Source: Candidatus Atabeyarchaeum deiterrae (GTDB lineage: Archaea > Asgardarchaeota > Atabeyarchaeia > Atabeyarchaeales > Atabeyarchaeaceae). Taken from it: a stretch of 64,000 bases of DNA. The notes under the pieces are model-generated. The model saw only the letters and a program-made list of their open reading frames with translations, ran no database searches and had not been told where the DNA came from. Positions 37,981 to 57,275 of the stretch are shown here, one piece after another. Every line of letters starts with the position of its first letter. Within the stretch, counting starts at the first letter, position 1. The DNA is taken from contig CP147780.1 of assembly GCA_037310415.1 (NCBI GenBank), forward strand, positions 512,001 through 576,000, given 5' to 3'. Position numbers and translations under genes: made by a program.

Positions 37981-38089
37981 GGGCGGGTGATCTAGCCTGG
38001 TTATGATGCCGCGCTTACAACGCGGTAGAAGTTACTATCAAATAAAATAGCTTCCGCGAAAATCGCCGGTTCAAATCCGGCCCCGCCCA
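37981..38089 (+). tRNA. tRNA-Val(UAC) with a 34-nt intron at 44/45 (38027-38060)
   Basis: Acceptor GGGCGGG/CCCGCCC, anticodon arm CCGCG-CTTACAA-CGCGG, T arm GCCGG-TTCAAAT-CCGGC; BHB CGCG/CGCG with bulges GTA and AAA. Confidence 0.9.
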
Positions 38090-38415: not shown

Positions 38416-38520
38416 TGGCGCCGGGGACGGGATTTGAACCCGCGCGACCCGTAAGAGTCACGGGCTCTCCTGTACGGACTGACTCAAGGCCCGCGCCGTA
38501 GTCCGCTTGGCTACCCCGGC
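38416..38520 (-). tRNA. tRNA-Ser(UGA) with a canonical 16-nt intron (38467-38482); CCA encoded
   Basis: Class II cloverleaf with long variable arm; BHB CUUG/CAGG. Confidence 0.93.
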
Positions 38521-49376: not shown

Positions 49377-49628
49377 CTAATCTCTTGGGATGTATCTATA
49401 AAAAACTGCATACTCACCTGCTGTTTCACTTTTCCTCATTATCTTCACAATGTCACCCTTTTTCGCATTTATCGCAATCATGACGGGATCATCTATTTTG
49501 ATTAGTGGAAGCCACTCTGGCTGGATGTTATACTTCTCAAGCAGTTCCTTTTTCTCTTCCTCAGTGAGAAGAATGTGCTTTGGAACAATCTCGTGCTCAA
49601 TGAGCTTCTTTGGCTCTTGTGAAGACAC
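49377..49628 (-). CDS. rpoH: RNA polymerase subunit H (Rpo5)
   Basis: HEIVPKH, LPLI..DDP, RKSETAG. Confidence 0.96.
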   Translation of the reverse strand: MSSQEPKKLIEHEIVPKHILLTEEEKKELLEKYNIQPEWLPLIKIDDPVMIAINAKKGDIVKIMRKSETAGEYAVFYRYIPRD

Positions 49629-49692
49629 GTCGCTAGACCTCCGTCCATATCTTCAATTGATCTATCATCAATCTCGAATCGTTGTGCAGGTG

Positions 49693-49907
49693 TGGCGGGC
49701 CCGAGGGGAATTTCGGCATATCCTCTTGTAATATGCTATCGAACCCCCGGCCACCGGGTTTCATTACGCTACCCTTGGATGGTTTGTTCTCTCTGGCATT
49801 AGTCGACGTTTAAAAGCCTCACCCTCTGAGGAGCAGTTCACTCCTCTAGAGTCCGGCGCTATAGGCAGACACTGTTTCTTCCTTCTACCTGACTGAGCTA
49901 CGGGCCC
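49693..49907 (-). tRNA. tRNA-Lys(UUU) with four introns (49861-49884, 49818-49852, 49760-49810, 49710-49737); CCA encoded
   Basis: Removing the four BHB-bounded segments gives GGGCCCGTAGCTCAGTCAGGTAGAGCGCCGGGCTTTTAACCCGGTGGCCGGGGGTTCGATTCCCCTCGGGCCCGCCA, a complete cloverleaf. Confidence 0.88.
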
Positions 49908-50034
49908 AAGCAGGCCTCATACACCTGTATTGTCTATGGATAAAATGAATTCCTTATATTCTTTTCTCCTCTTTGGGCGTCTCATTCTTCGAAGCTTCAT
50001 GACCAAAAAGACGACCTCGTCTTACCTTCTCAGG

Positions 50035-57170: not shown

Positions 57171-57275
57171 TGGCGGGCCCGGAGGGAATTGAACCCTCGA
57201 CCACCAGCTGGCTCCCCTGACGGGAAGAAGCAAGGTTAGGGGGCTGGCGCCCTATCCTGACTAGGCCACGGGCCC
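57171..57275 (-). tRNA. tRNA-Arg(CCU) with a canonical 27-nt intron (57210-57236); C at position 33; CCA encoded
   Basis: GGGCCCG acceptor, CCAGC-CCCCTA|A-GCTGG anticodon arm, GAGGG-TTCAATT-CCCTC T arm. Confidence 0.88.

Follow-up and report, generated by a model that had tools for sequence, protein, structure and literature searches.

Atabeyarchaeia-2 comes from wetland soil and belongs to the Asgard archaea, not to Thermoproteales. An interrupted stretch of 215 nucleotides on its chromosome raises the question of whether it is one working tRNA gene that is cut into five pieces by four introns. The genome is a single contig of 2,756,679 bp, and the stretch lies within a segment of 64,000 nucleotides that we call the window; all coordinates without a prefix are those of the window unless a published coordinate is cited. 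A first-pass annotation, made from the letters of the window, had read the locus as a tRNA-Lys(UUU) gene with four introns. That reading is borne out by ARAGORN, by a parser of our own, by the geometry of the splice motifs and by conservation. Overall, we consider it very nearly certain that Atabeyarchaeia-2 has here its only tRNA-Lys(UUU) gene, a functional one with four bulge-helix-bulge (BHB) introns that EndA and RtcB would splice.

Five exons and four introns in 215 nucleotides

The tRNA-Lys(UUU) gene occupies 49693..49907 on the minus strand. Read from 49907 to 49693, it begins with an acceptor strand and ends with the complement of that strand, a G and an encoded CCA (49695-49693). The introns account for 138 of the 215 nt (64%), and their removal leaves a canonical 77-nt tRNA built from exons of 23, 8, 7, 22 and 17 nt. 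Intron positions follow Sprinzl numbering, with a D-loop of 9 nt that includes 17a, and all parts lie on the minus strand. Exon 1 (49885..49907, 23 nt) comprises the acceptor 5' strand, the D-stem 5' strand, the D-loop and G22. It is followed at 22/23 by intron 1 (49861..49884, 24 nt), whose central helix is AGGU/GCCU with an inner helix of 3 bp and an outer helix of 1 bp, an HBh' type. Exon 2 (49853..49860, 8 nt) runs from A23 to G30. At 30/31 stands intron 2 (49818..49852, 35 nt; central helix CGCC/GGUG), with an inner helix of 4 bp and an outer helix of 2 bp that grows to 4 bp after removal of the adjacent introns. The UUU anticodon is held by exon 3 (49811..49817), a piece of 7 nt from G31 to A37 with the sequence GCUUUUA. 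Intron 3 (49760..49810, 51 nt) interrupts the canonical position 37/38; its central helix, CUUU/AAUG, contains a U-U mismatch, its inner helix has 4 bp, and the anticodon stem serves as the outer helix (2 bp in the precursor). Exon 4 (49738..49759, 22 nt) spans A38 to U59. Intron 4 (49710..49737, 28 nt) lies at 59/60 in the T-loop, with a central helix UUCG/CGAA, an inner helix of 7 bp and the 5-bp T-stem as outer helix, which makes it a full hBHBh' motif. Finally, exon 5 (49693..49709, 17 nt) supplies U60, the T-stem 3' strand, the acceptor 3' strand, G73 and CCA.

The spliced tRNA has the UUU anticodon, U33, a purine at 37, the T-loop UUCGAUU and 21 of 21 stem pairs. Its cloverleaf has an energy of -36.3 kcal/mol, against a minimum free energy of -38.7 kcal/mol, so the predicted fold is near the cloverleaf. 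Every figure that the first-pass annotation had given for intron positions, lengths, helices and 3-nt bulges was correct, and so were its 138 intronic nucleotides and its 7-nt exon (GCTTTTA in DNA letters); the product of 77 nt that it predicted is what we obtained in silico, and ARAGORN calls it tRNA-Lys(ttt). A split or circularly permuted gene was also considered and is ruled out by the five exons, which are collinear within the 215 nt. The gene is overlapped in its 3' part, on the other strand, by an open reading frame of 93 aa (49450-49731, plus strand), a probably spurious frame that gene finders might call in error.

All four junctions showed BHB geometry, with two 3-nt bulges on opposite strands, in this gene and in both of its orthologs described below. 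If each of the eight sites is cut symmetrically behind the second base of its bulge, exactly the 77-nt tRNA results. The central helix is complete (4/4 pairs) for introns 1, 2 and 4, and reaches 3/4 for intron 3, which is 4/4 in one ortholog (genome G001); a flanking helix of at least 2 bp is present at each of the four motifs. To estimate the chance level, each intron was compared with segments of its own length placed at 200,000 random positions in the genome. Motifs at least as good occurred at frequencies of 3.6e-4, 7.5e-5, 4.1e-4 and 0 for introns 1 to 4, respectively.

We also utilized a parser that reads a cloverleaf from left to right, may skip any BHB-bounded segment and is blind to the boundaries proposed beforehand. 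Its top parse reproduced the four boundaries of the first-pass annotation and was the sole parse with all 21 stem pairs. The parser misses the annotated Phe, Trp, iMet and Lys(CUU) genes and is therefore no census tool; a strict genome-wide run of it gave no match. With each intron either kept or taken out, the gene has 16 possible forms, and ARAGORN was run on all of them. The form free of all four introns was the only one called as an intron-free tRNA-Lys(ttt); with the option -i, the form keeping intron 3 alone was called as tRNA-Lys with a 51-nt intron, and the remaining forms gave nonsense calls or none. When four deletions of the same lengths were placed at random, some ARAGORN call appeared in 4.65% of 2,000 trials. 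An ARAGORN call by itself is therefore weak, and the weight of the argument lies on conservation, motif geometry and completeness of the stems.

On the unspliced sequence the common tools were silent. ARAGORN called no tRNA in the 64-kb window and none in the 215 nt, and the Rfam tRNA model had no match at the locus at its gathering threshold or at relaxed thresholds (E up to 10), with only two other tRNAs found in the window. These misses are limits of the tools and no evidence against the gene. The first-pass annotation had expected that standard annotation would likely overlook the gene. The published record says otherwise. Valentin-Alvarado et al. (2024; Nat Commun 15:6384, PMC11291895) described two complete Atabeyarchaeia genomes of 2,808,651 and 2,756,679 bp, and their Supplementary Data 4 lists, under SRVP_Atabeyarchaeota_2_curated.FINAL, tRNA #34 Lys(TTT) at 561907-561693, with tRNAscan-SE introns at 561884-561861, 561852-561818, 561810-561760 and 561737-561710. 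Less 512,000, these coordinates are exactly the window boundaries of the gene and its four introns, so tRNA #34 is the same gene. tRNAscan-SE 2.0 thus called all four introns (Infernal score 89.4 bits; PMC11291895), and the check with this program that the first-pass annotation had proposed is answered by an identical set of boundaries. In the paper the gene is a table entry, without motif, comparative or enzyme analysis. The four-intron tRNA-Lys(UUU) is already part of the published annotation of this genome, and our analysis confirms it rather than discovers it.

Conservation of the exons and alternative readings

The comparison covered three genomes of the family: the source genome (G000) and two genomes of a sister genus (G001 and G002). 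Both sister genomes contain full-length counterparts with 81-83% identity. Aligned across the three genomes, the locus showed variation in 64 of 140 intron columns (46%) and 16 of 26 flanking columns, but in 0 of 77 exon columns; the difference between exons and introns was highly significant (Fisher p = 1e-15, three genomes). Each of the five exons is invariant in all three genomes, including those around intron 1, in which 10 of 25 alignment columns vary. Two genera whose proteins share about 70% amino-acid identity thus have perfectly conserved exons. The alignment shows purifying selection on the five exons.

Four substitutions fell in the intron strands of central helices, and pairing was kept or improved in all of them: both sister genomes have U-A in place of a U-G pair in intron 1, G001 has U-G in place of the U-U mismatch in intron 3, and two further A-to-G changes gave U-G. 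Upstream of the gene, a block of 22 consecutive invariant bases (49946..49967, minus strand) stands out in the three-genome alignment between flanks that vary. Counted from the mature 5' end, it stands some 39-60 nt upstream, and it contains AATATAA at 49960-49954. Judging from its position and conservation, this block is probably the promoter.

Does the genome need this gene? The published table lists one Lys(UUU) and one Lys(CUU) gene for Atabeyarchaeia-2. The first-pass annotation had advised a check for another Lys(UUU) gene; none is listed in that table, and BLAST searches of the genome with the precursor and with the spliced tRNA found no second copy: apart from the exons of the gene itself, they matched the Lys(CUU) paralog (genome 320687-320799, 85-92% identity) and, generically, other tRNAs. 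The joined sequence running from exon 2 across exon 3 into exon 4 is nowhere continuous in the genome. In long open frames, about 44% of the lysine codons are AAA, which by the established rules of decoding a CUU anticodon does not read. Since the gene is the sole Lys(UUU) gene and the CUU anticodon cannot take its place, it should be essential.

The Lys(CUU) paralog (G000:C1:320687-320799, plus strand) has a peculiarity of its own. At 22/23, where Lys(UUU) has its intron 1, the paralog contains an insert of 36 nt, which tRNAscan-SE counts as 0 introns and R2DT as 1; the motif at this insert has a central helix of 4/4 pairs and flanking helices of 1 bp each.

Two other readings of the locus need to be weighed against a functional gene with four introns. 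One is that only three of the inserts are introns and that the fourth survives splicing and enlarges a loop of the mature tRNA. It draws on the published table itself, where R2DT 'observed' 3 introns in tRNA #34 against the 4 of tRNAscan-SE, and where the Atabeyarchaeia-1 ortholog (519373-519589), which is our BLAST match in G001, likewise has four introns by tRNAscan-SE and 3 by R2DT (Supplementary Data 4, PMC11291895). Nevertheless, retention of any single insert leaves no sensible tRNA, apart from intron 3, which ARAGORN itself calls an intron. All four inserts diverge at intron-like rates beside invariant exon flanks, and all four have BHB geometry. The conflict between the two counts is thus settled in a way that favours four, by the divergence, by the motifs and by the fact that full removal alone gives a canonical tRNA; we hold the three-intron reading to be very unlikely.

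The other reading is that of a decaying pseudogene filled with insertions, with AAA decoded through another gene. One could be led to it by the 64% of the gene that is not tRNA sequence and by the invisibility of the unspliced gene to ARAGORN and the Rfam model. However, the genome holds no other Lys(UUU) gene for its abundant AAA codons, and a dead locus is hard to reconcile with exons that are perfectly conserved across two genera at about 70% amino-acid identity, with a conserved upstream block and with substitutions that keep the splice helices paired. We give this reading almost no credence, and return to the functional gene with four BHB introns.

Splicing enzymes and a possible order of intron removal

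On this account, transcription, probably from the conserved TATA-like promoter, would yield a precursor with a leader ahead of its roughly 215 nt. Every intron would fold with its flanking exon bases into a bulge-helix-bulge motif; in each 3-nt bulge an (alpha-beta)2 EndA would cleave behind the second base, and RtcB would ligate the five exons into a 77-nt tRNA decoding AAA. Contigs from four metatranscriptome runs do not cover the locus (49600-50000), a result that counts neither for nor against its transcription.

The genes for such a pathway are present. The genome encodes two EndA paralogs (loci L021:1474-2190, minus strand, and L022:1192-1788, plus strand), each with the N-terminal and the catalytic Pfam domains, and an RtcB ligase (E = 5e-175). 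Two paralogs fit the rule stated for most Asgard genomes in a 2026 preprint (doi 10.64898/2026.10.13.758758). EndA alpha, of 238 aa, matches the alpha subunit of the (alpha-beta)2 enzyme of Aeropyrum pernix (E = 2e-46) in an alignment that spans the catalytic His and Lys regions and the Crenarchaea-specific loop, where a K-P-K aligns with K44-P-R46 of A. pernix. The paralog of 198 aa has Thr at the position of the catalytic His of M. jannaschii EndA, as would be expected of a structural beta subunit. Experiments have shown that the Crenarchaea-specific loop and its lysine confer broad substrate specificity (PMC3241643). The relaxed-specificity EndA postulated by the first-pass annotation thus has a plausible candidate, in that an (alpha-beta)2-type enzyme with a similar loop is encoded and its breadth is predicted from the protein sequence. 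Two features of these proteins deserve a remark: the first 60 or so residues of EndA alpha form an N-terminal extension that the crystallised crenarchaeal alpha subunits lack, with the alignment starting at residue 61, and about 25 residues at the N terminus of EndA beta make up an acidic tail.

The two smallest exons, of 8 and 7 nt, have a consequence for splicing, since with such micro-exons the neighbouring splice motifs overlap. A23 and G24 are used twice: for intron 1 they contribute to the 3' bulge and the outer pair, and for intron 2 they are part of the outer helix. G31 lies in a bulge of the intron 2 motif but in a helix of the intron 3 motif, and C32 and U33 are common to the outer helix of intron 2 and the central helix of intron 3. 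With nucleotides shared in this way, the four motifs cannot all be complete simultaneously, and two enzyme molecules could hardly sit on adjacent sites together. The first-pass annotation had gone further and held that ordered splicing is required. We computed folding ensembles, with base-pair probabilities, for all 15 partly spliced forms in each of the three orthologs. Despite the overlap of the motifs, these ensembles gave no consistent splicing order, and the three orthologs disagreed, so the requirement finds no support there. The central helix of intron 3 had a probability of about zero in the nearest-neighbour model and was never predicted, and the helices of introns 2 and 4 had low or variable probabilities in some orthologs. 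With such low probabilities, formation of the motifs would have to be enzyme-assisted or context-dependent. A fixed, interdependent order of removal, suggested by the sharing of nucleotides, is in our judgement a tentative idea that is more probably wrong than right. If it were true, the gene would offer a natural model of tRNA splicing in several ordered steps, in that group of archaea which is closest to eukaryotes.

Other tRNA genes and related intron systems

The four-intron gene is part of a pattern in some Asgard archaea, in which nearly all tRNA genes are interrupted. In the two Atabeyarchaeia genomes, 92-95% of tRNA genes have introns and over half have multiple introns (PMC11291895). 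The window holds four tRNA genes: besides Lys(UUU), these are Val(TAC) (37981-38089, plus strand), Ser(TGA) (38416-38520, minus strand) and Arg(CCT) (57171-57275, minus strand). Across the 2.76-Mb chromosome, 38 of the 43 annotated tRNA genes lie within one stretch of 0.6 Mb (about 208-793 kb).

The published table for Atabeyarchaeia-2 is without Asp, Cys, Ile(GAU), Thr(CGU) and Ser(CGA) tRNAs. Using a scan for T-arms together with the parser, and ARAGORN to confirm the spliced products, we located Ile(GAU) and Cys(GCA), both with counterparts in the sister genomes, which shows that the table is incomplete. The unannotated tRNA-Ile(GAU) gene (G000:C1:459473-459662, or L023:34-223; plus strand, about 190 nt) has three introns, in the D-loop, the anticodon loop and the variable region. 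Its spliced form has 75 nt plus CCA and 21 of 21 stem pairs and is called tRNA-Ile(gat) by ARAGORN. Ala(CGC) lies directly downstream, and the counterpart at G001:C1:447829-448003 has conserved exon blocks. The unannotated tRNA-Cys(GCA) gene (G000:C1:1514976-1515102, or L024:27-153; minus strand) has two introns, of 36 and 16 nt, and the expected U73 discriminator. In G002 the Cys copy is without the 16-nt second intron and is continuous across the predicted junction. The copy in G001 (1599781-1599895) is 98% identical over 115 nt, introns included, before its 3' end diverges; this identity is oddly high for genomes at about 70% amino-acid identity.

tRNA-Asp(GUC) is annotated in neither Atabeyarchaeia genome. 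In the source genome it was not found by the T-arm scan, by acceptor pairs with a GUC loop core combined with BHB parsing, or with the Freyarchaeia Asp exons as query; each search returned coding-like chance matches only. It may be that the Asp gene is interrupted more heavily than the others, is split or permuted, or has no encoded CCA.

By spliced alignment of the mature tRNA to the Lys genes of other Asgard genomes, which places introns to within 1-2 nt, we compared the intron positions across families. In family f15 the Lys gene is interrupted at 22/23 (26 nt), at 37/38 (51 or 21 nt) and at about 59/60 (29 nt). That of family f5 has introns at 24/25, at 30/31 with the same CGCC/GGUG helix, and at 37/38, and that of family f10 has the 37/38 intron only. 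In Freyarchaeia (G037), Lys(UUU) has an insert in the D-loop, an intron at 30/31 with the same GGUG 3' motif and one at 53/54, and is without the canonical intron. The 30/31 intron and its GGUG 3' motif are thus common to two other Asgard families. Taken together, these alignments show the Atabeyarchaeia Lys(UUU) gene as a mosaic, the union of intron positions that are found separately in other Asgard families. No sequence similarity was evident by eye between Atabeyarchaeia and f15 introns at the shared positions. Without such similarity across families, common descent and repeated gain are inseparable here; repeated intron gains have been argued in the 2026 preprint (doi 10.64898/2026.10.13.758758).

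The Freyarchaeia Lys(UUU) gene itself (L031:383-551; G037:C1:1427332-1427500) is marked 'possible pseudo' in the published table. Spliced at its three listed introns it gives a product of 99 nt, which ARAGORN rejects. By eye, the gene has a D-loop insert of roughly 30 nt, the 30/31 intron and the 53/54 intron, so it is the listed boundaries that look wrong, rather than the gene that looks dead.

How exceptional is a gene with four introns? Reviews up to 2021 gave three introns per tRNA gene as the archaeal maximum, and against that figure a four-intron gene with a 7-nt anticodon exon is striking. The first-pass annotation had likewise given up to three, for Thermoproteales, in agreement with those reviews, but the figure has been outdated by the 2024 table and by the 2026 preprint, and its suggestion that four is at or beyond the known extreme does not hold. 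Not only this gene has been published. Freyarchaeia Arg(TCT) and Ile2(CAT) have four tRNAscan-SE introns each, and the R2DT count is four for Atabeyarchaeia-2 Trp(CCA) and Freyarchaeia Leu(GAG) (PMC11291895). The preprint reports up to five intervening sequences in one tRNA gene, and an average of 2.2 per gene in Atabeyarchaeaceae, Freyrarchaeaceae and Jordiarchaeaceae (doi 10.64898/2026.10.13.758758). What is added here is the selection on the exons, the mosaic of intron positions, an EndA with the loop lysine, the gaps in the tRNA table and the resolution of the four-versus-three conflict.

The closest parallels differ from this gene in several respects. The 2026 preprint concerns the same lineage and the same phenomenon, with BHB enrichment at the boundaries. 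On the other hand, it works at the level of a census, its text does not mention Lys, and it uses no transcript data (doi 10.64898/2026.10.13.758758). The Freyarchaeia Arg(TCT) and Ile2(CAT) genes share the number of introns, but are other isoacceptors in another class. The multi-intron tRNAs of Thermoproteales, a group in which Pyrobaculum calidifontis has 71 introns in 46 tRNA genes (Sugahara 2008), likewise have BHB introns at non-canonical positions and an (alpha-beta)2 EndA with the specificity loop. By contrast, Thermoproteales belong to a different phylum, and their reported maximum is three introns per gene, compared with the four of the Atabeyarchaeia-2 tRNA-Lys(UUU).
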